This document shows, piece after piece, positions 1,195-19,800 of a stretch of DNA of 19,800 nucleotides (the first letter of the stretch is position 1; the number at the start of each line of letters is the position of its first letter). The stretch is from the IMG/VR virus record IMGVR_UViG_2711768043_000001; one strand, 5' to 3'. Below the pieces are notes generated by a model, which saw nothing but the letters and a program-made list of their open reading frames with translations, ran no database searches and was not told the DNA's origin. A program made the translations under genes and the position numbers. The DNA is from a virus (Duplodnaviria > Heunggongvirae > Uroviricota > Caudoviricetes).

Positions 1195-1689
1195 ATGGCT
1201 GGAACGGCGGGGCGTTCCGGGCGTCGCCCCAAGCCAACGGCGCGCAAGGCGCTGGCCGGAAACCCCGGCAAGCGAGCCCTGAATAAAGATGAACCTGTTT
1301 TTACGCCCATCAAAGGTGTTGAGCCACCGGAGTGGTTCGCTGAAGAAGATCTCCCTCTCGCCACGATCATGTGGCAACTGACAACCAAAGAACTCTGCGG
1401 TCAGGGCCTGCTGTGCGTGACTGACCTCGTGGTGCTTGAGCGGTGGTGCGTGGCCTACGAGTTCTGGCGACGTGCCGTGAAAAATATTGCCAGACAGGGC
1501 AACACCATCACCGGTGCAATGGGCGGTATGGTCAAAAATCCGGAGCTGACCGCCAAAAAAGAACAGGAGTCCGAGATGAGCAGTACGGGGGCAATGCTCG
1601 GACTCGACCCCAGCAGCCGCCAGCGTCTGATTGGCCTGGCGGGGAAGAAGAAAGCCACTAACCCGTTTCTGAAAATTATCGAATCATGA
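1195..1689 (+). CDS. Terminase small subunit (P27-family-like)
   Basis: The ORF track frame is 1186..1689. I prefer the ATG at 1195, which has an AGGAG Shine-Dalgarno at 1182..1186, over the GTG at 1186. The product is basic and N-terminally Gly/Arg/Lys-rich, and the gene sits directly upstream of the large terminase with an ATGA overlap. Confidence 0.75.
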
Positions 1690-3419
1690 GCCGGAAATCT
1701 TACCCCAACGTAAATGCTGCAAATCAGTATGCCCGGGATGTCGTGCGCGGAAAGATTATTGCCTGCCAGTTTGTGATTCAGGCCTGCCAGCGCCATCTTG
1801 ATGACCTGATGGCGGAAAAAAGTAAGTCGTTTCGTTACCGCTTCGACAAGGACCTGGCTGAACGGGCCGCCAAATTTATTCAGCTGTTGCCGCACACCAA
1901 GGGTGAGTGGGCATTTAAACGGATGCCCATCACGCTGGAGCCGTGGCAGCTATTTGTGATCTGCTGTGCGTTTGGCTGGGTCAATAAAGGCACCCGGTTG
2001 CGCCGCTTCCGGGAGGTGTATACCGAAATTCCCCGTAAGAACGGCAAATCGGCAATCTCTGCCGGTGTTGCCCTGTATTGTTTTGCCTGTGATAACGAGT
2101 TCGGCGCGGAAGTGTATTCCGGTGCCACGACGGAGAAACAGGCGTGGGAAGTCTTTCGTCCGGCACGACTGATGTGTAAACGCACACCCATGCTGACGGA
2201 AGCGTTCGGGATTGAGGTTAACGCCTCAAACATGAACCGTCCGGAGGATGGTGCGCGGTTTGAACCGCTGATCGGTAACCCCGGTGATGGTTCATCACCC
2301 CACTGTGCCGTGGTGGATGAATATCACGAGCACGCCACAGATGCGCTTTACACCACGATGCTTACCGGGATGGGGGCGCGACGCCAGCCACTGATGTGGG
2401 CCATTACCACCGCCGGGTACAACATTGAGGGGCCGTGCTACGACAAACGGCGGGAAGTCATCGAGATGCTCAACGGCTCGGTGCCAAACGATGAACTGTT
2501 CGGGATCATCTATACCGTTGATGAAGGTGACGACTGGACCGACCCGCAGGTGCTGGAAAAAGCCAATCCAAATATTGGCGTGTCGGTTTATCGCGAATTT
2601 TTGTTAAGTCAGCAGCAGCGTGCGAAAAATAACGCCCGTCTGGCAAACGTCTTTAAAACAAAACACCTCAATATCTGGGTGTCGGCGCGTTCGGCGTATT
2701 TCAACCTGGTGAGCTGGCAGAGCTGCGAGGATAAATCACTGACCCTTGAGCAGTTCGAGGGGCAGCCGTGCATTCTGGCCTTTGACCTGGCGCGTAAGCT
2801 GGATATGAACAGCATGGCGCGACTTTATACCCGCGAGATTGACGGTAAAACGCATTACTACAGTGTGGCCCCGCGTTTCTGGGTACCGTATGACACGGTG
2901 TACAGCGTCGAGAAAAATGAAGATCGCCGGACAGCCGAACGCTTTCAGAAATGGGTGGAAATGGGCGTTCTGACCGTTACCGATGGTGCGGAGGTGGATT
3001 ATCGCTACATCCTCGAAGAGGCCAAAGCGGCGAACAAAATCAGCCCGGTCAGTGAGTCACCCATCGACCCCTTCGGGGCGACCGGGCTGTCACATGACCT
3101 TGCTGATGAAGACCTGAACCCCGTCACCATCATTCAGAACTACACCAACATGTCCGATCCGATGAAAGAGCTGGAAGCGGCGATTGAATCGGGGCGCTTT
3201 CATCATGACGGCAATCCCATCATGACCTGGTGTATCGGCAACGTGGTCGGCAAAACCATTCCGGGTAACGATGATGTGGTGAAGCCCGTCAAGGAGCAGG
3301 TGGAAAACAAAATCGATGGTGCAGTTGCGCTGATTATGGCGGTTGGCAGAGCCATGCTGTACGAGAAAGAAGACACGCTGTCTGATCACATTGAGTCCTA
3401 CGGGATCCGCTCGCTTTAA
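1686..3419 (+). CDS. Terminase large subunit
   Basis: 577-aa ORF translationally coupled to the small subunit. Its size, position and sequence character (ATPase N-terminal half, acidic nuclease-like C-terminal half) fit phage large terminases. Confidence 0.88.
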
Positions 3420-3430
3420 CTGAGGTAATT

Positions 3431-3613
3431 ATGATCATGCTGATTCTCGCGCCTCTGGTGGGCGTGCTGGGTGCGCTTTTGCTGGCGTATGGTGCCTGGC
3501 TGATTTATCCCCCGGCGGGTTTTGTTGTTGCCGGGGCGCTGTGCCTGTTCTGGTCGTGGCTGGTGGCGCGATATCTCGACCGTACACAGTCGTCTGTCGG
3601 CGGAGGTAAATAG
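3431..3613 (+). CDS. Small hydrophobic protein with two predicted transmembrane helices (60 aa)
   Basis: The product [49 protein letters not shown] has two hydrophobic stretches. A GAGG Shine-Dalgarno precedes the ATG, and the gene is wedged between the terminase and portal genes. Confidence 0.5.
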
Positions 3614-4854
3614 TGTTCTTTTCGGGATTATTTCAACGAAAAAGTGACGCACCGGTGACCACGCCAGCAGAGCTGGCGGATGCCATCGGGCTGTCGTATG
3701 ACACCTATACCGGAAAGCAGATCAGCAGTCAGCGGGCTATGCGACTGACGGCGGTTTTTTCCTGCGTCAGAGTGCTGGCAGAGTCGGTCGGGATGTTGCC
3801 CTGCAATCTGTATCACCTGAACGGCAGCCTGAAGCAGAGAGCCACCGGCGAACGTCTGCATAAACTGATCTCCACGCATCCCAATGGCTATATGACGCCG
3901 CAGGAGTTCTGGGAGCTGGTGGTCACCTGTCTGTGCCTGAGGGGAAACTTTTACGCCTACAAAGTGAAAGCATTTGGCGAAGTGGCTGAACTGCTGCCCG
4001 TCGATCCCGGCTGTGTGGTACCGAAGCTTAACAGTAGCTGGGAACCGGTCTATCAGGTCACATTCCCGGATGGCTCCACGGATGTACTGAGCCAGGAGGA
4101 TATCTGGCATGTGCGTACGCTGACGCTGGACGGACTGGTGGGGCTGAATCCCATCGCCTATGCCCGCGAGGCAATATCGCTGGCGGCAGCGACCGAAGAG
4201 CACGGGGCCAGACTGTTCAGCAATGGCGCGGTGACGTCGGGTGTTTTGCGTACAGAGCAGACGCTGTCGGATCAGGCTTATGAGCGCCTGAAGAAAGATT
4301 TTGAGGAGCGTCACACCGGGCTTGGCAATGCTCACCGCCCGATGATCCTTGAGATGGGGCTGGACTGGAAGTCGATGGCGTTGAACGCAGAGGACAGCCA
4401 GTTCCTGGAAACCCGCAAGTTTCAGCTTGAAGAAATTTGTCGTCTGTTCCGTGTGCCATTGCACATGGTGCAGAACACCGATCGCGCCACCTTCAACAAT
4501 ATCGAAGAGCTGGGGCTCGGATTTATCAACTATTCACTGGTGCCGTATCTGACCCGCATTGAGCAGCGGATCAACACCGGACTGGTACGAAAAAGTAAGC
4601 AGGGTGTTTATTACGCCAAATTTAACGCCGGGGCGTTACTGCGCGGGGATATGAAGTCCCGTTTTGAAGCCTACGCCACCGGGATTAACTGGGGAATTTA
4701 CTCTCCCAATGACTGCCGCGACCTGGAAGATATGAATCCGCGTCCCGGTGGTGATGTCTATCTCACACCGATGAACATGACCACGAAACCCTCCGATGGC
4801 AGTAAAGCCGGTAAGCAGAAGGATAACGCCAATGCAGACGAAACAACGTCTTGA
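3613..4854 (+). CDS. Portal protein (HK97-family-like)
   Basis: 413-aa ORF with a GTG start preceded by a GGAGG Shine-Dalgarno (3602..3606). It follows the terminase and precedes the protease and capsid genes in canonical HK97 order. Confidence 0.85.
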   Translation: MFFSGLFQRKSDAPVTTPAELADAIGLSYDTYTGKQISSQRAMRLTAVFSCVRVLAESVGMLPCNLYHLNGSLKQRATGERLHKLISTHPNGYMTPQEFWELVVTCLCLRGNFYAYKVKAFGEVAELLPVDPGCVVPKLNSSWEPVYQVTFPDGSTDVLSQEDIWHVRTLTLDGLVGLNPIAYAREAISLAAATEEHGARLFSNGAVTSGVLRTEQTLSDQAYERLKKDFEERHTGLGNAHRPMILEMGLDWKSMALNAEDSQFLETRKFQLEEICRLFRVPLHMVQNTDRATFNNIEELGLGFINYSLVPYLTRIEQRINTGLVRKSKQGVYYAKFNAGALLRGDMKSRFEAYATGINWGIYSPNDCRDLEDMNPRPGGDVYLTPMNMTTKPSDGSKAGKQKDNANADETTS

Positions 4855-5482
4855 TGTACCGCTGAGTCTGAAATCTGTCAGTGACTCCGGTGAGTTTGAA
4901 GGATATGGCTCCGTCTTTGGTGTAAAGGACAGTCACGATGATGTGGTGATGTCCGGGGCATTTGCTGCGTCCCTGCGGGCGTGGAGTGACAGAAAAGCGT
5001 TACCTGCGCTGCTCTGGCAGCACCGCATGGATGAGCCCATCGGTGTTTACACCGAAATGAAGGAAGACGATGTCGGGCTTTACGTCAGGGGGCGGTTGCT
5101 CATTGATGATGATCCCCTGGCAAAACGCGCACATGCACACATGAAGGCCGGTTCGTTAACCGGCCTTTCTATTGGGTACGTCCTGAAGGACTGGGAATAC
5201 GACCGGACGAAAGAAGCCTTTCTGCTGAAAGAAATCGACCTCTGGGAAGTCAGTCTGGTGACGTTTCCGTCTAACGACGAGGCGCGGATCAGCGACGTCA
5301 AGAACGCGCTGGCCCGCGGGGAAATCCCCGAACAGAAAAAAATCGAAAGAGTCCTGCGTGATGTCGGACTCTCCCGTACCCAGGCCAAAGCATTCATGGC
5401 CGGGGGCTATAGCGCACTGTCCCTGCGCGACGCTGAGGATGTGGGCTCTGCACTGAATGCACTGAAAAATCTGAACTTCTAA
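4832..5482 (+). CDS. Prohead maturation protease (HK97-family-like)
   Basis: The ORF track frame is 4796..5482. An ATG at 4832 with an AAGGA upstream is the likelier start; the ATG at 4796 would overlap the portal gene by 59 nt. The product has the protease-like segment DSGEFEGYGSVFGVKDSHDDVV, and the gene precedes the capsid gene. Confidence 0.8.
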   Translation: MQTKQRLDVPLSLKSVSDSGEFEGYGSVFGVKDSHDDVVMSGAFAASLRAWSDRKALPALLWQHRMDEPIGVYTEMKEDDVGLYVRGRLLIDDDPLAKRAHAHMKAGSLTGLSIGYVLKDWEYDRTKEAFLLKEIDLWEVSLVTFPSNDEARISDVKNALARGEIPEQKKIERVLRDVGLSRTQAKAFMAGGYSALSLRDAEDVGSALNALKNLNF

Positions 5483-5496
5483 TCAGGAGAAATACG

Positions 5497-6702
5497 ATGG
5501 CGGTAGATATTAAAGATGTCGAACAGGTCGCGCAGGAGCTGCAGCAGAAGTTTGACGACTTCAAAGCAAAGAACGACAAGCGCGTGGATGCGATTGAGCA
5601 GGAAAAAGGCAAGCTTGCCGGGCAGGTGGAAACCCTGAACGGGAAACTCAGCGAGCTGGAAAATCTCAAAAGCGATCTTGAAAAAGAGCTGCTTGAGCTG
5701 AAACGTCCAGCAGGTGGCGCGCAAAATAAACTGGCCACCGAGCATAAAGAAGCGTTTGTGGGCTTTTTGCGTAAAGGCCGTGAAGATGGTCTGCGCGATC
5801 TGGAGCGTAAGGCATTGCAGGTGGGCACCGATGAAGACGGTGGCTATGCCGTGCCGGAAGCGCTGGATCGCAACATTCTCACCCTGCTGAAAGATGAAGT
5901 GGTGATGCGCCAGGAAGCCACGGTGATCACCGTTGGCGGTTCCGACTACAAAAAACTGGTGAATCTGGGCGGCACGGCTTCCGGATGGGTGGGGGAAACG
6001 GATACGCGATCCCAGACTGCCACCTCCAGACTGGAGCTGATTGAACCTCTCATGGGGGAAATCTACGGCAACCCGCAGGCCACCCAGAAAATGCTGGACG
6101 ATGCCTTCTTCAACGTGGAGGCCTGGATCAACAGCGAGCTGGCAACCGAATTTGCCGAACAGGAAGAAATTGCCTTTACCTCAGGCGATGGCACCAAGAA
6201 GCCGAAAGGGTTCCTGGCGTATGAATCCACTGATGAAACCGATAAGGTCCGGGCGTTCGGCAAACTTCAGCATATTGTATCCGGCGAAGCGACCGCGGTG
6301 ACCGCAGACGCCATTATCAAACTGATTTACACGCTGCGAAAGGCACACCGCACTGGCGCGAAGTTCATGATGAACAACAACAGCCTGTTTGCCATCCGTC
6401 TGCTGAAAGACACCGAGGGTAACTATCTGTGGCGTCCGGGGCTGGAACTGGGGCAGCCGTCCTCTCTGGCGGGTTACGGTATCGCTGAAAACGAACAGAT
6501 GCCGGATATCGCCGCTGATGCGAAAGCCATTGCATTTGGTAACTTCAAACGGGGTTACACTATCGTTGACCGTATCGGCACCCGCATTCTGCGTGATCCG
6601 TACACCAATAAACCGTTTGTCGGTTTTTATACCACCAAGCGCACCGGCGGGATGCTGGTCGATTCGCAGGCCATCAAACTGCTGAAGATTGCAGCGGCGT
6701 AA
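5497..6702 (+). CDS. Major capsid protein (HK97-fold) with an N-terminal coiled-coil scaffolding (delta) domain
   Basis: 401 aa. The N-terminal ~100 residues are charged and heptad-rich (QELQQKFDDFKAKNDKRVDAIEQEKGKLAGQVETLNGKLSELENLKSDLEKELLELK), as in HK97 gp5. A strong AGGAGA Shine-Dalgarno precedes the ATG. Confidence 0.9.
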   Translation: MAVDIKDVEQVAQELQQKFDDFKAKNDKRVDAIEQEKGKLAGQVETLNGKLSELENLKSDLEKELLELKRPAGGAQNKLATEHKEAFVGFLRKGREDGLRDLERKALQVGTDEDGGYAVPEALDRNILTLLKDEVVMRQEATVITVGGSDYKKLVNLGGTASGWVGETDTRSQTATSRLELIEPLMGEIYGNPQATQKMLDDAFFNVEAWINSELATEFAEQEEIAFTSGDGTKKPKGFLAYESTDETDKVRAFGKLQHIVSGEATAVTADAIIKLIYTLRKAHRTGAKFMMNNNSLFAIRLLKDTEGNYLWRPGLELGQPSSLAGYGIAENEQMPDIAADAKAIAFGNFKRGYTIVDRIGTRILRDPYTNKPFVGFYTTKRTGGMLVDSQAIKLLKIAAA

Positions 6703-6709
6703 TCATTCA

Positions 6710-6729
6710 GGGGCGCGGAACCGCGCCCC
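6710..6729 (+). terminator. Strong GC hairpin downstream of the capsid gene (attenuator or mRNA-stabilising stem-loop; no T-run)
   Basis: GGGGCGCGG-AA-CCGCGCCCC is a perfect 9-bp inverted repeat, 8 nt after the capsid stop. It is not followed by a U-tract, so probably not a full terminator. Confidence 0.45.
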
Positions 6730-6751
6730 CTGTTCTGACGGGTGAAGAATC

Positions 6752-6952
6752 ATGATCCTGAAACAAGATCTGAAATGGTCACCGGACGGTATGCGTGTTG
6801 AGGTCATTCGGGCCGGTGAGTATGACGACGGGGCGCTTCCTGCCCGGGTGCAGGAGATTGCACTTCAGGCCGGGTTAGCAGAGCGCGGAATCAGTGCAAA
6901 AAGCAGTAAAGCGGCAAAAGAGAAAAAAGCCACGACCAGTAAAGAGGGCTGA
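6752..6952 (+). CDS. Small hypothetical head-region protein (66 aa)
   Basis: ORF between the capsid and connector genes on the same strand with a lysine-rich C-terminus. No recognisable family. Confidence 0.45.
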   Translation: MILKQDLKWSPDGMRVEVIRAGEYDDGALPARVQEIALQAGLAERGISAKSSKAAKEKKATTSKEG

Positions 6953-6954
6953 GT

Positions 6955-7278
6955 ATGCTTCTGACAATGGAAGAGATTAAAGCCCAACTCCGGCTGGATG
7001 AGGATTTCGATGTTGATGACCGCCATCTGCAACTGCTGGCCTGTGCGGCGCAAAAGCGGACGGAAACGTATCTGAACCGGAAGCTCTATGCACCGGATGA
7101 AACCATTCCGGACAGCGACCCGGACGGGCTACACCTGCCGGATGATATTCGTCTGGGGATGCTGATGCTTATCAGCCATTTTTACGAAAACCGCTCGTCG
7201 GTTACGGAAGTGGAGAAACTCGACATGCCGCAGAGTTTTGGCTGGCTTGTTGGCCCGTACAGGTACTTTCCGCAATGA
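6955..7278 (+). CDS. Head-tail connector / DNA-packaging protein (gp6-like)
   Basis: 107-aa acidic protein immediately after the capsid region, with a GAGGG Shine-Dalgarno. Size and position match gp6-like head-tail connectors. Confidence 0.65.
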   Translation: MLLTMEEIKAQLRLDEDFDVDDRHLQLLACAAQKRTETYLNRKLYAPDETIPDSDPDGLHLPDDIRLGMLMLISHFYENRSSVTEVEKLDMPQSFGWLVGPYRYFPQ

Positions 7279-7685
7279 AAATTCGTCAGGCGCAGACCAG
7301 CGCAACCTACATTCTGCCGGACCCCGGCGAACTGAATAAACGCGTCCTGATCCGCCAGCGGGTGGATATGCCCGCGGATAACTTTGGCGTGGAGCCTCAA
7401 TATCCGGTTACGTTCCGGACATGGGCGAAGGTTATCCAGACCAGTGCCACCACCTGGCAGGAAACCGCGCAGACCGGGAACGCCATCACCCATTACATCA
7501 CCATTCGTTACCGCAGGGGGATCACCGCTGATTATGAGGTGGTCTGTGATGACAGTGTGTACCGGGTGAAACGTCAGCGTGATCTGAACGGGGCGCGGCG
7601 CTTTCTGCTGCTGGAGTGTACGGAACTGGGCGAATGTAGGCAGAGTCACGGAGGCAGCAATGGCGACTCCCTTTTTTCACGTTGA
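7275..7685 (+). CDS. Head-tail joining (head closure) protein
   Basis: 136-aa ORF coupled by an ATGA overlap to the previous gene, in the expected position. Confidence 0.6.
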   Translation: MKIRQAQTSATYILPDPGELNKRVLIRQRVDMPADNFGVEPQYPVTFRTWAKVIQTSATTWQETAQTGNAITHYITIRYRRGITADYEVVCDDSVYRVKRQRDLNGARRFLLLECTELGECRQSHGGSNGDSLFSR

Positions 7686-8166
7686 TGTTCAGCAGCCCGC
7701 CGAGATGCGCTTTAACCGCGCCCGTGTCCGGCGGGCGTTTGTCACGATTGGGCAGCGTCATATGCGTGATGCCCGTCGGCTGGTGATGCGCCGTGCGCGG
7801 TCGGCACCGGGTGAAAACCCCGGTTATCAGACCGGACGCCTGGCTCGTTCGATTGGTTATATGGTGCCGAGAGCCAGTAAAAAGCGAGCCGGTTTTATGA
7901 CACGCATTGCCCCTAACCAGCGCAACGGGAAGGGGAACCGGATGATCTCTGGTGACTTCTATCCGGCGTTTCTGTTTTTTGGTGTCCGGGGAGGAGCAAA
8001 ACGTCGTCGTAGTCATCATCGTGGTGCATCCGGTGGCAGCGGCTGGCGACTGGCTCCACGTAATAACTTCATGGTGGAAACTCTTGAAAAGAACCGCAGC
8101 TGGACACGCTATTTTCTGGCGCGGGAATTGCGTAAATCACTGAAGCCGGAGCGACGACACAGATGA
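7660..8166 (+). CDS. HK97 gp10-like tail-component / neck protein
   Basis: 168-aa basic protein with a GGAGG Shine-Dalgarno at 7649..7653. It overlaps the previous gene by 26 nt in another frame. Confidence 0.6.
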   Translation: MATPFFHVDVQQPAEMRFNRARVRRAFVTIGQRHMRDARRLVMRRARSAPGENPGYQTGRLARSIGYMVPRASKKRAGFMTRIAPNQRNGKGNRMISGDFYPAFLFFGVRGGAKRRRSHHRGASGGSGWRLAPRNNFMVETLEKNRSWTRYFLARELRKSLKPERRHR

Positions 8167-8723
8167 AACTGACGCCTGTTATTGCTGCGCTGCGTGCCCG
8201 CTGCCCGTATTTTGAAAACCGGGTGGCAGGCGCGGCACAGTTCAAAAATCTGCCGGAGGTCGGAAAGCTGAGACTCCCGGCGGCGTATGTGGTACCGGGT
8301 GATGACTCTCCGGGAGAAAACAAAAGCCAGACCGACTACTGGCAGGAGCTGAAAGAGGGCTTCTCCGTGGTTGTCATACTGAGTAACGGGCGTGATGAGC
8401 GCGGTCAGTTTGCCTCATATGATGTGGTGGACGATGTCCGGCAGATGCTCTTTAAGGCCCTGCTGGGCTGGAGCCCGGAAGCGTGCGGTAACCCGATTAC
8501 CTATGACGGCGGCACGCTGCTGGATCTGAATCGTCATGAGCTGATTTATCAGTTCGATTTTTCGGTCATCAGCGAGCTGACTGAAGACGATACCCGCCAG
8601 CAGGATGATCTGAACAGTCTGGATGAACTGCAAACGCTGGCGATTGATGTTGATTATCTCGAGCCCGGTAACGGGCCTGACGGCGATATCGAACATCACA
8701 CCGAAATAACCCTTCCTTCCTGA
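8163..8723 (+). CDS. Tail-associated hypothetical protein (Mu-like tail module; possible tail completion/terminator protein)
   Basis: 186-aa acidic protein coupled by an ATGA overlap, in the position of Mu-type pre-sheath genes. Confidence 0.5.
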   Translation: MKLTPVIAALRARCPYFENRVAGAAQFKNLPEVGKLRLPAAYVVPGDDSPGENKSQTDYWQELKEGFSVVVILSNGRDERGQFASYDVVDDVRQMLFKALLGWSPEACGNPITYDGGTLLDLNRHELIYQFDFSVISELTEDDTRQQDDLNSLDELQTLAIDVDYLEPGNGPDGDIEHHTEITLPS

Positions 8724-8731
8724 GGATCCTC

Positions 8732-17042: not shown

Positions 17043-18087
17043 ATTTCAGCGCCCGACGCTGGCAGAAAATATCAGTATGCTCCGTAACGATTTATTCGCC
17101 TGGCTGGACGTCAGCGACACGCTCCGGCGCATGGATGAAGACGTGCGGGCAAAGGTGTATGCGGCGGCGCTGCATACGGTTTACGGGTACATCGATTATC
17201 TGGCAATGAACATGCTGCCTGACTTGTGCGATGAGTCCTGGCTGGCGCGACATGCTGCGATGAAACGATGTCCGCGCAAGGGGGCCACGGCTGCCAGCGG
17301 GTATATGCGCTGGGAAGGTGTCAGCGATGGCCTGAAGGTGACCGCCGGGAGTGTTATTCAGCGCGATGACCTGGTGCAGTACACGGCAACTGCCGATGCA
17401 ACCAGCTCCGGTGGTGTCCTGCGCGTGCCGATCGCCTGCTCAAGTGCAGGCGCGGTCGGTAACGCTGACGACGGTACGTCATTAATCCTGGTCACGCCGG
17501 TGAATGGTCTGCCGTCTTCCGGCGTGGCAGATACACTGACAGGTGGATTTGATACTGAAGAGCTGGAAACGTGGCGCGCCCGCGTCATTGAGCGGTATTA
17601 CTGGACGCCTCAGGGCGGGGCTGACGGGGACTATGTCGTCTGGGCTAAAGAAGTTCCCGGCATTACCCGCGCATGGACATACCGACACTGGATGGGAACG
17701 GGGACTGTCGGTGTGATGATTGCCAGCAGCGACCTGATTAATCCCATTCCGGAAGAATCAACGGAAACGGCGGCAAGGCTGCATATTGAGCCACTGGCCC
17801 CGGTGGCAGGCTCTGATTTGTATGTGTTCAGGCCGGTGGCGCATACGGTGGATTTTCATATCCGTGTGACGCCGGATACACCAGAAATACGGGCTGCCAT
17901 CACCGCCGAGTTGCGTTCGTTCCTGCTGCGTGATGGTTATCCGCAGGGAGAACTGAAGGTGTCGCGTATCAGTGAAGCGATTTCCGGTGCGAACGGGGAA
18001 TACAGCCATCAGTTGCTTGCACCGGCAGACAATATCTCCATTGCAAAAAATGAACTGGCGGTACTGGGGACGATTTCATGGACGTGA
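17029..18087 (+). CDS. Baseplate wedge protein, J-like (Mu gp47-like)
   Basis: 352-aa ORF in canonical position. It overlaps both neighbours. Confidence 0.8.
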
Positions 18088-18662
18088 CAAACGATGATTA
18101 CATCCGTCTGTTGTCGGCACTGTTGCCCCCCGGTCCGGCGTGGTCAGCCAGCGATCCGGCGATTGCCGGTGCGGCACCGTCATTAACCCGCGTTCATCAG
18201 CGTGCGGATGCCCTGATGCGGGAGCTGGATCCGCGCACCACCACTGAACTGATAAACCGCTGGGAGCGTCTGTGCGGCCTGCCGGATGAATGTATTCCGG
18301 CGGGAACGCAGACCCTTCGCCAGCGTCAGCAACGGCTGGATGCGAAGGTTAATCTGGCGGGCGGCATCAATGAGGATTTTTACCTTGCACAGCTTGCTGC
18401 CCTGGGCAGACCGGATGCCACCATCACGCGATACGATAAAAGCACGTTCACCTGCTCATCTGCCTGTACTGACGCGGTGAATGCGCCGGAATGGCGGTAT
18501 TACTGGCAGGTCAACATGCCAGCCGCCACCAACACCACCTGGATGACATGTGGCGATCCCTGTGATTCCGCGCTGCGTGTCTGGGGCGACACCGTCGTCG
18601 AATGTGTGCTTAACAAACTCTGCCCGTCGCATACCTACGTAATTTTTAAATATCCGGAGTAA
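18078..18662 (+). CDS. Baseplate/tail protein (Mu gp48 / e14 YmfQ-like)
   Basis: 194-aa ORF immediately before the tail fibre gene, as in Mu (gp48) and e14 (ymfQ, which I recall as a similar length). Confidence 0.7.
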
Positions 18663-18665
18663 TCC

Positions 18666-19304
18666 ATGCATCGTATAGACACGAAAACCGCGCAGAAGGA
18701 TAAGTTCGGCGCGGGTAAGAACGGTTTTACCCGTGGTAACCCCCAGACAGGCACGCCTGCCACCGATCTGGATGATGACTACTTTGACATGTTGCAGGAG
18801 GAGCTTTGCAGCGTGGTGGAGGCATCCGGTGCCAGCCTGGAGAAGGGGCGGCACGACCAGTTGCTTACCGCGCTTCGTGCGCTGCTGTTAAGCCGCAAGA
18901 ATCCGTTTGGCGATATCAAATCGGATGGCACGGTGAAAACGGCTCTCGAAAACCTTGGTTTGGGGGAATTGGCTCTGGCTGGCGCAACAACCGGCGCTAT
19001 GTTGGTGAATGGGTATGTAGCAATTCCATTAATTATTTCTGGCGTTCGGAGACCACTTATTATCCAGTGGGGAGTGGGGCAGTTTGGGGGAAGTCTGGGG
19101 GATGATGCGGGATATTTAAACAATTTCCCTTTCGCTTTTCCGTCGGCGTGCTACGTGATGGTTGCCAGCCACGTGGGGCATACACCTTCGGGTGCCGGAA
19201 TACTATCTGCCTCCGCAATCACAAAAAGCGGCTTTCGTGGTTTTTCCAGCGTAGCGACTGCCGCAAATCCTGTATCGGGCTGTTATGTTGCTATAGGAGG
19301 GTGA
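18666..19304 (+). CDS. Tail fibre protein, with a constant N-terminal part and a variable C-terminal part inside a putative invertible segment
   Basis: 212-aa ORF after the baseplate genes, Gly/Ala/Ser-rich in its C-terminal part. A gix/hix-like crossover sequence lies inside the gene at 18943..18968, and a tfa gene follows. Confidence 0.7.
18943..18968 (+). other. Candidate 26-bp recombination (crossover) site for a Gin/Pin/Cin/Hin-family DNA invertase
   Basis: CTCTCGAAAACC|TTGGTTTGGGGGAA has a central AAACC-TT-GGTTT imperfect dyad flanked by TTCC-like ends, resembling Mu gix and Salmonella hix sites as I recall them. It lies in the tail fibre gene where the constant and variable parts would meet. 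Confidence 0.45.
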
Positions 19305-19305
19305 T

Positions 19306-19740
19306 GTGTTTTTTAGTCCATCTTTAAATATTTTTGTGAATCCTGCGCTTAAGGATGACTACATCAATGTAAATTCATGGCCAGATGATGCTGTTGAAGT
19401 TGATGAGCAGGTGTATATTGAGTTTTCCGGATTACCGCCGAAAGGAAAAATCCGTATCGCTGGGGAAAATGGTTTTCCTGCATGGTCTGAAATTCCACCA
19501 CCAACACATGAGGAACAGATTGCCGCAGCCGAATTGAAAAAGCAGCAATTGATTAATCAGTCCAACGAATATATGAATACCAAGCAATGGCCTGGTAAAG
19601 CGGCTATTGGTCGTCTGAAAGGTGAGGAACTGGCGCAATATAATTTGTGGCTGGATTATCTGGACGCACTGGAACTGGTTGATACCTCCAGTGCTCCAGA
19701 TATTGAATGGCCTACGCCTCCGGCAGTTCAGGCCAGATGA
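19306..19740 (+). CDS. Tail fibre assembly protein (Tfa/U-like chaperone)
   Basis: 144-aa ORF with a GTG start overlapping the tail fibre stop. The C-terminal motif NLWLDYLDALELVDTSSAPDIEWPTPP is characteristic of Tfa proteins. Confidence 0.75.
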   Translation: MFFSPSLNIFVNPALKDDYINVNSWPDDAVEVDEQVYIEFSGLPPKGKIRIAGENGFPAWSEIPPPTHEEQIAAAELKKQQLINQSNEYMNTKQWPGKAAIGRLKGEELAQYNLWLDYLDALELVDTSSAPDIEWPTPPAVQAR

Positions 19741-19800
19741 CATCCGGAGCGGTGCTCGTATCTGTTGCCGTCACCGCGTCAATGTAATCAAGCACGGCGT
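19712..19800 (-). CDS. Second tail fibre assembly protein (Tfa'), C-terminal end only; the gene starts beyond the window
   Basis: The reverse-strand frame translates as ...AVLDYIDAVTATDTSTAPDVIWPELPEA then stop, carrying the same Tfa C-terminal motif (DY.DA...DTS.APD..WP). It converges on and overlaps the + strand tfa by 29 nt, as the U/U' genes do in the Mu G segment. Confidence 0.6.
   Translation of the reverse strand, partial: AVLDYIDAVTATDTSTAPDVIWPELPEA

Follow-up and report, generated by a model that had tools for sequence, protein, structure and literature searches.

The 19,800-nt stretch of phage DNA analysed here (hereafter, the window) ends, with a probability that we put at about 0.9, inside an e14-type P segment, in other words an invertible tail-fibre segment of the Gin/Pin/Cin/Hin family, which belongs to a structurally complete SfV-like prophage. 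DNA invertases bind as dimers to two 26-bp sites, which synapse at a Fis-bound enhancer; the core is then cut with a 2-bp stagger, the subunits rotate by 180 degrees and the DNA is religated (PMC3798978). Applied to the present locus, a serine invertase, once on both sites, would cleave the central TT that they share and, assisted by an enhancer to which Fis binds within the 5' end of the invertase gene, would rotate the 1.8-kb segment. After rotation, the reading frame of the constant N-terminal part of the fibre (Sc) would continue into an alternative variable part (Sv') in place of the one currently expressed (Sv), with the alternative assembly gene tfa' downstream, so that a different fibre tip would be made. 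The two fibre forms presumably recognise different receptors, since their C-terminal domains differ (Gp53-like_C versus Collar).

Judging from Pfam labels and from the loci of relatives, the window comes from an SfV-like temperate myovirus with a Mu-type tail and holds its morphogenetic module; the gene order given in Table 1 was taken from Pfam labels on loci that are 97–99% identical to window positions 3073–18968. The head, tail and baseplate module is complete (1686–18662), and, because a gene of the Mu gp48/YmfQ type lies directly upstream of it, the fibre gene occupies the position of Mu gene S; Mu and SfV alike have gp44-gp48 in this order ahead of the fibre. The integration site of the prophage in relatives is thrW, beside proA. 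For comparison, we fetched ten contigs that each encode an identical 212-aa fibre (L003 to L012), to which we added E. coli EC43 (L002). The three loci nearest to the window (99.4–99.96% identity) are L008, with 4 base differences over the 11,135 positions of window 8666–19800, L007, with 8, and L005, with 69. The SNPs specific to the window all fall at third codon positions, the one at 19542 being AAG/AAA, which is Lys either way. For the last 1.8 kb of the window, the best complete E. coli genome is 97.9% identical.

Table 1. Features of the window that bear on the invertible segment (positions refer to the window).
Feature	Position	Strand	Description
Gene order			terminase, portal, protease, capsid, connectors, sheath, tube, tape measure, DNA-circulation protein, Mu gp44-48 baseplate, fibre
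Mu gp48/YmfQ-type baseplate gene	18078..18662	+	Phage_Mu_Gp48, PF10076, E=1e-26; directly upstream of the fibre gene
Fibre ORF	18666-19304	+	212 aa
Constant N-terminal part of the fibre, Sc	18666..18968	+	residues 1 to ~100, ends ...ALENLGLGE
Left 26-bp crossover site (pix/gix type)	18943..18968	+	outer arm CTCTCGAAAACC, core TT at 18955-18956, inner arm GGTTTGGGGGAA
Variable C-terminal part of the fibre, Sv, currently expressed	18969..19304	+	Gp53-like_C, PF21882, E=4e-12
tfa, assembly gene paired with Sv	19306..19740	+	Caudo_TAP, E=3e-35
tfa' 3' end, assembly gene of the alternative cassette	19712..19800	-	runs past the window end

An additional ORF of 176 aa, without Pfam hit, lies on the + strand between the tape-measure and DNA-circulation genes (13073–13603). 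Among relatives it is present only in L001, L005, L007, L008 and L014 to L023, yet 14,059 blocks of the public collection list exactly this protein, and the gene is possibly a moron or otherwise accessory.

A sequence-only reading of the window had proposed a crossover site of the Gin/Pin type, with an AAACC-NN-GGTTT core, at 18943..18968, about 93 codons into the fibre gene and at the junction of its constant and variable parts, and each of these proposals held. The site, CTCTCGAAAACCTTGGTTTGGGGGAA, was found at this place on the + strand and is the sole match in the window with at most 3 mismatches (none in 200 shuffles); its core, AAACCNNGGTTT, occurs once for 0.03 occurrences expected. It starts in codon 93 of the fibre ORF and its central TT falls in codon 97. 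The dyad is of the AAACC-NN-GGTTT type with imperfect symmetry, like known pix/gix sites, and the whole site matches the left site of K-12 e14 (CTCTCGAAAACC-TT-GGTTTGGGAGAA) at 25 of 26 positions and Mu gixL (TTATCCAAAACC-TC-GGTTTACAGGAA) at 19 of 26. The Shigella phages SfV, SfI and SfII are 97% identical to the window at the DNA level until 18968 and have nothing related beyond this position, which is also the exact end of homology for most related prophage loci (at least 10). Across the site, the GC content goes from about 0.56 to about 0.44, and it is this drop, together with the end of homology at 18968, that identifies the left site as the point where the constant part of the fibre gives way to the variable one. 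On the constant side, 99% identity to K-12 e14 StfP extends over the first 100 aa.

Downstream of the fibre gene, the convergence of a + strand tfa with a - strand tfa' over 29 nt, also announced from the letters of the window, was confirmed: tfa runs to 19740 and the stop of tfa' lies at 19712. The tfa' end translates as ...AVLDYIDAVTATDTSTAPDVIWPELPEA*, the same as the C-terminus of a 197-aa Caudo_TAP ORF in L008. Because the two convergent assembly genes both encode a C-terminal LDYLDA/LDYIDA motif on opposite strands, the window also contains an 18-nt inverted repeat (19651–19668 and 19777–19794), which corresponds to the repeat I3 of L002 (83% complementary) and constitutes a second short inverted homology within the segment.

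The window stops at 19800, before the position where the second crossover site was expected, and the rest of the segment has to be read from relatives. In 9 of the 10 identical-fibre contigs, L008 among them, and in EC43, a right site in inverted orientation, TTCTCCCAAACC-AA-CGTTTATGAAAA, lies about 1815 bp downstream. This right site is identical to that of e14, its central AA becomes TT once inverted and thus agrees with the TT of the left site, and the repeat shared by the two sites is 19 bp long with 2 mismatches. Between the sites, the order in relatives is Sv, tfa, tfa' (-) and Sv' (-), with a Sv' of the Collar type in L008. Both the inverted second site and the - strand variable fibre part that had been predicted beyond the window end are, thus, present in the identical-fibre loci, the latter directly upstream of tfa'. 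The window's own downstream sequence very likely resembles that of its nearest relatives, that is, continues as L008 does; the rest of the segment, at window-equivalent positions ~19801–20783, would then comprise the remainder of tfa' (-), a Collar-domain Sv' (-) and the right site TTCTCCCAAACCAACGTTTATGAAAA.

Just outside the right site, we also observed a short - strand leader ORF (MMPFARYFCIFINVGLGEG...), located at 12104–12146 in L008 and the same in e14 (L024, ~5617–5656). From a start located between pin and the right site, it reads over the site into whichever variable part is facing, and, because of this, the silent-looking cassette has a start codon of its own. In e14, such an arrangement yields StfE/StfE2, and StfE2 is reported to block phage T2 adsorption (PMC12529663).

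That the segment has turned is best seen when public genomes are compared with each other, L008 and FG92-1 representing the unflipped orientation and E. coli BE2-5 the flipped one. Inverting the segment in silico at the core, in L008 and in L002, produces complete in-frame Sc-Sv' fibres of 247–251 aa, whose reading frames stop where tfa' starts. With its segment flipped, the L008 sequence (2401 nt, invertase stump included) is found in one piece and at 100.0% identity in the complete genome of BE2-5, whose annotation contains the fused fibre gene and in which the Sv DNA lies inverted beside the invertase stump. In the same genome, window 16184–18968 aligns in the + orientation at 99.96%, and window 18950–19800 aligns inverted. 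L008 and FG92-1 each align to BE2-5 in three blocks (+, inverted, +) with flanks that are 99.9% identical and breakpoints at the sites, each of which has 19 nt shared by the adjoining blocks. A G/A marker in the inner arms tells which half-sites have been exchanged: L008 has a left site ending in ...GGGGGAA and a right site beginning with TTCTCCC..., and those of BE2-5 read ...GGGAGAA and TTCCCCC..., respectively. The marker, thus, changes sides, which places a reciprocal exchange within TTGGTTTGGG, i.e., at the core. Comparison between public genomes therefore reveals both orientations, which had been expected from the window, and the breakpoints coincide exactly with the two sites. In e14, whole-genome sequencing and PCR have demonstrated phase variation (PMC4272514). 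It is conceivable that the one flip separating BE2-5 from L008/FG92-1 happened long ago, or that it was a rare occurrence to which no invertase contributed.

One has to keep in mind that the prophages of BE2-5 (L013, 13258–18053) and FG92-1 (L026, 9824–11002) are remnants without head genes and most tail genes, in which the invertible segment and the neighbouring gene of the GmrSD/DUF262 type (described below) have been kept. A promoter and terminator scan of the segment returned fewer consensus matches than shuffled controls. We also considered whether the scatter of orientations among genomes with an identical stump could reveal repeated flipping, and rejected this idea, as the cassettes themselves differ, which is cassette replacement and not simple inversion. 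For example, L029, L030 and L031 (E. coli 127, D3 and LAU-OXA; locus 2403–4528) have a 100%-identical stump and wholly different cassette pairs, made of a glycine-rich Sv with a disrupted stfP and of a different gp53-like Sv'. Clearly, wholesale replacement of fibre cassettes takes place at the locus besides inversion.

The invertase gene itself had been predicted to lie downstream, and this prediction holds among the relatives, with one caveat. An intact invertase of 184 aa (Resolvase and HTH_7 domains) is encoded just outside the right site in L002, L003, L004, L006 and L010 to L012, and the L002 protein shares 78% identity with Mu Gin and 96% with K-12 PinE; in the three loci nearest to the window (L005, L007 and L008), as in BE2-5 and FG92-1, pin is a stump of 42 codons followed by a converging GmrSD/DUF262 gene. 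Homology to intact pin stops at ...AAGTCCGAAA, 191 bp from the centre of the right site. This truncation junction recurs, with minor variants, in numerous complete genomes (IHE3034 and APEC O1 are two of them); the more divergent loci L015 and L017 have it as well. Because this junction is so widely distributed, the truncation is old relative to the split between L008/FG92-1 and BE2-5, and was probably followed by one inversion or more. Among the 30 genomes listed, BE2-5 and FG92-1 included, none has a second 5' region of the pinE type. On the evidence of the loci nearest to it, the window's own copy probably cannot make its invertase.

The GmrSD/DUF262 gene encodes a protein of 629–649 aa resembling a type IV restriction defence; it is located at 12397–14346 (-) in L008, which is equivalent to window ~21062–23011, and converges on the pin stump in numerous complete E. 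coli genomes as well as in the nearest loci. At the end of the thrW prophage, a defence gene appears to have taken the place of most of the invertase gene. The right end of the prophage (attR) lies about 4.5 kb past the invertase stump and is marked by a repeat, 52 bp long, of the tRNA-Thr (thrW) 3' end (L008 16608–16659, compared with L013 10243–10294). Because attR lies beyond them, GmrSD, ydfV, flxA and the gene for a 4-fold beta-flower protein are cargo inside the prophage.

In the Hin and Gin systems, the enhancer forms part of the invertase gene and lies some 100 bp away from a site (PMC3798978 and references therein). Here, the invertase start codon is at +69 from the right site, a spacing found in Mu and e14 as well. 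In Mu, two Fis-like 15-mers are present at +120 and +168, 48 bp apart, and the one at +168 is conserved in e14, L002 and L008. As pin is truncated at +191, the putative enhancer region is retained in the stump, and the remaining 191 bp may still act as an enhancer.

Could such a segment, then, be turned by an invertase encoded elsewhere? PinQ and PinE have both been shown experimentally to invert the e14 P segment, PinQ acting in trans and more strongly than PinE (PMC12529663). In BE2-5, the Qin site is empty and the Rac site carries an intact pinR, whose product is identical to K-12 PinQ over 195 of 196 aa and 38% identical to PinE. Adding pinQ to the query brought the matching places from 2 to 3 in BE2-5 and left them at 5 in FG92-1, a comparison that is indirect and concerns these two genomes only. 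The query containing pinQ had a best match at least 99% identical in 2639 records, mostly to its pinQ part, and PinQ/PinR-type invertases are accordingly common in E. coli. Inversion of the truncated-pin segment in trans is plausible, because both orientations persist in the truncated lineage and BE2-5 has an intact PinR. We lean slightly towards the view that the pin gene adjacent to the window's segment is the 42-codon stump and that any current switching would need an invertase supplied in trans, for example a PinR/PinQ of the Rac/Qin type. We put forward more tentatively, as a proposal with odds well below even, that the segment is an orphaned switch, which lost its own invertase to GmrSD, kept its sites and its enhancer region, and is now flipped by the PinR/PinQ of unrelated cryptic prophages. 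If this were true, one resident prophage would control the fibre choice of another or, alternatively, would control a surface-blocking chimera of the StfE2 type made for the defence of the host.

The same truncation can be read the other way, namely that the segment was invertible in the past and that its gp53-like tip is now fixed, the adjacent invertase being truncated. We regard this as possible and, all things considered, rather unlikely, our estimate being a statement on present activity. Such a reading fits the 42-codon pin followed by GmrSD in the three loci that are 99.4–99.96% identical to the window, the lack of a second pinE-like 5' region in BE2-5, FG92-1 and the other 28 genomes listed, the loss of the switch in the characterised SfV-family relatives SfV and SfIV, and the place counts of the unflipped FG92-1, which show no pinQ-like match. 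It is harder to reconcile with the existence of both orientations with an identical truncation junction in DNA that is 99.9–100% identical, with two crossover sites that are both intact beside 191 bp covering the Mu/Hin enhancer region, or with invertases of the PinQ/PinR type that act on e14 sites in trans and are common in E. coli. The window copy may switch rarely or never.

Other explanations would do without an invertase altogether. The stretch encoding LENLGLGE might be a hotspot of homologous or illegitimate recombination that swaps cassettes, and the many Sv types (gp53-like, Collar, glycine-rich and others) joined to the same Sc exactly at this point would agree with such a mosaic boundary. 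We give it little credence, however, as it does not account for the clean, reciprocal way in which otherwise identical DNA has been inverted and its half-sites exchanged, nor for a conserved inverted partner site, an identical central dinucleotide and an adjacent invertase gene; a shared repeat of 19 bp with 2 mismatches is, moreover, a poor substrate for RecA. As for a gix-like sequence arising by coincidence within a coding region, the site is indeed short, partly palindromic and placed in a conserved coding motif, but only ~0 to 0.03 occurrences are expected per window, 25 of its 26 positions are those of the experimentally defined e14 site, and it coincides with the homology breakpoints and with the observed inversion. 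The flipped sequence of BE2-5, with its breakpoints at the sites and its exchange of half-sites, refutes this last reading, to which we attach a negligible probability. An invertible segment of the e14 type, thus, remains our preferred reading of the window end.

For annotation, it follows that the fibre gene at the end of the window should be described with two alternative C-termini, and that assemblies of this locus may legitimately differ by a 1.8-kb inversion. The persistence of both orientations in a widespread thrW prophage lineage, despite a truncated invertase, fits inversion of e14-type segments driven by PinQ/PinR, and cross-talk between prophages is thus open to study in natural isolates.

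Among known systems, the closest is the P segment of e14, a cryptic prophage of E. coli K-12 (stfP/ycfK, tfaP, tfaE, stfE, pinE, with pix sites), which is 1797 bp long, whose reported inverted repeats are the same sequences as here (PMC12529663), and which has the same order of ymfQ, Sc-Sv, tfa, tfa' (-), Sv' (-), right site and pin. The likeness extends to the left site (25/26), the right site (identical), Sc (99% over 100 aa), the PinE of relatives (96%), the spacing between the right site and the start codon, and the short - strand leader ORF, MMPFARYFCIFINVGLGEG, which is present in both. The differences are that e14 is a 15-kb remnant integrated at icd, whereas the prophage studied here is structurally complete and its relatives are integrated at thrW; that both variable cassettes differ from those of K-12 e14; and that the invertase is truncated in the nearest relatives. 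The work of Kirigo et al. (NAR 2025, PMC12529663), in which PinQ/PinR-driven e14 inversion serves as an anti-phage defence, provides a precedent both for an invertase acting on these sites in trans and for a leader ORF that gives a chimeric protein of the StfE2 type after inversion; as the variable parts here differ from those of K-12, the effect on phage T2 cannot be assumed.

The Shigella serotype-converting phages SfV, SfI, SfII and SfIV share the thrW integration, the same overall morphogenetic module, and the baseplate genes and Sc at 97% DNA identity until 18968. SfV, however, has one fixed Sv with its tfa, followed by gtr genes, without a second cassette or an invertase, and SfIV has only a tfa' remnant, interrupted by an IS. 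The G segment of phage Mu (S/U, S'/U', gixL/gixR and Gin) is preceded by a homologous tail module, with gp44–gp48 and then the fibre, and follows the same logic of constant and variable fibre parts, convergent cassettes and an invertase gene just outside the right site. It differs in its dimensions (a 3-kb segment, a Sc of 170 aa and long fibres in Mu; 1.8 kb, a Sc of about 100 aa and fibres of 212–251 aa here) and in its central dinucleotide, which is TC in Mu and TT here. We see in this locus the system of the e14 P segment, closely related to the G segment of Mu, and its genes already bear the names stfP, tfaE and pinE in public annotation.
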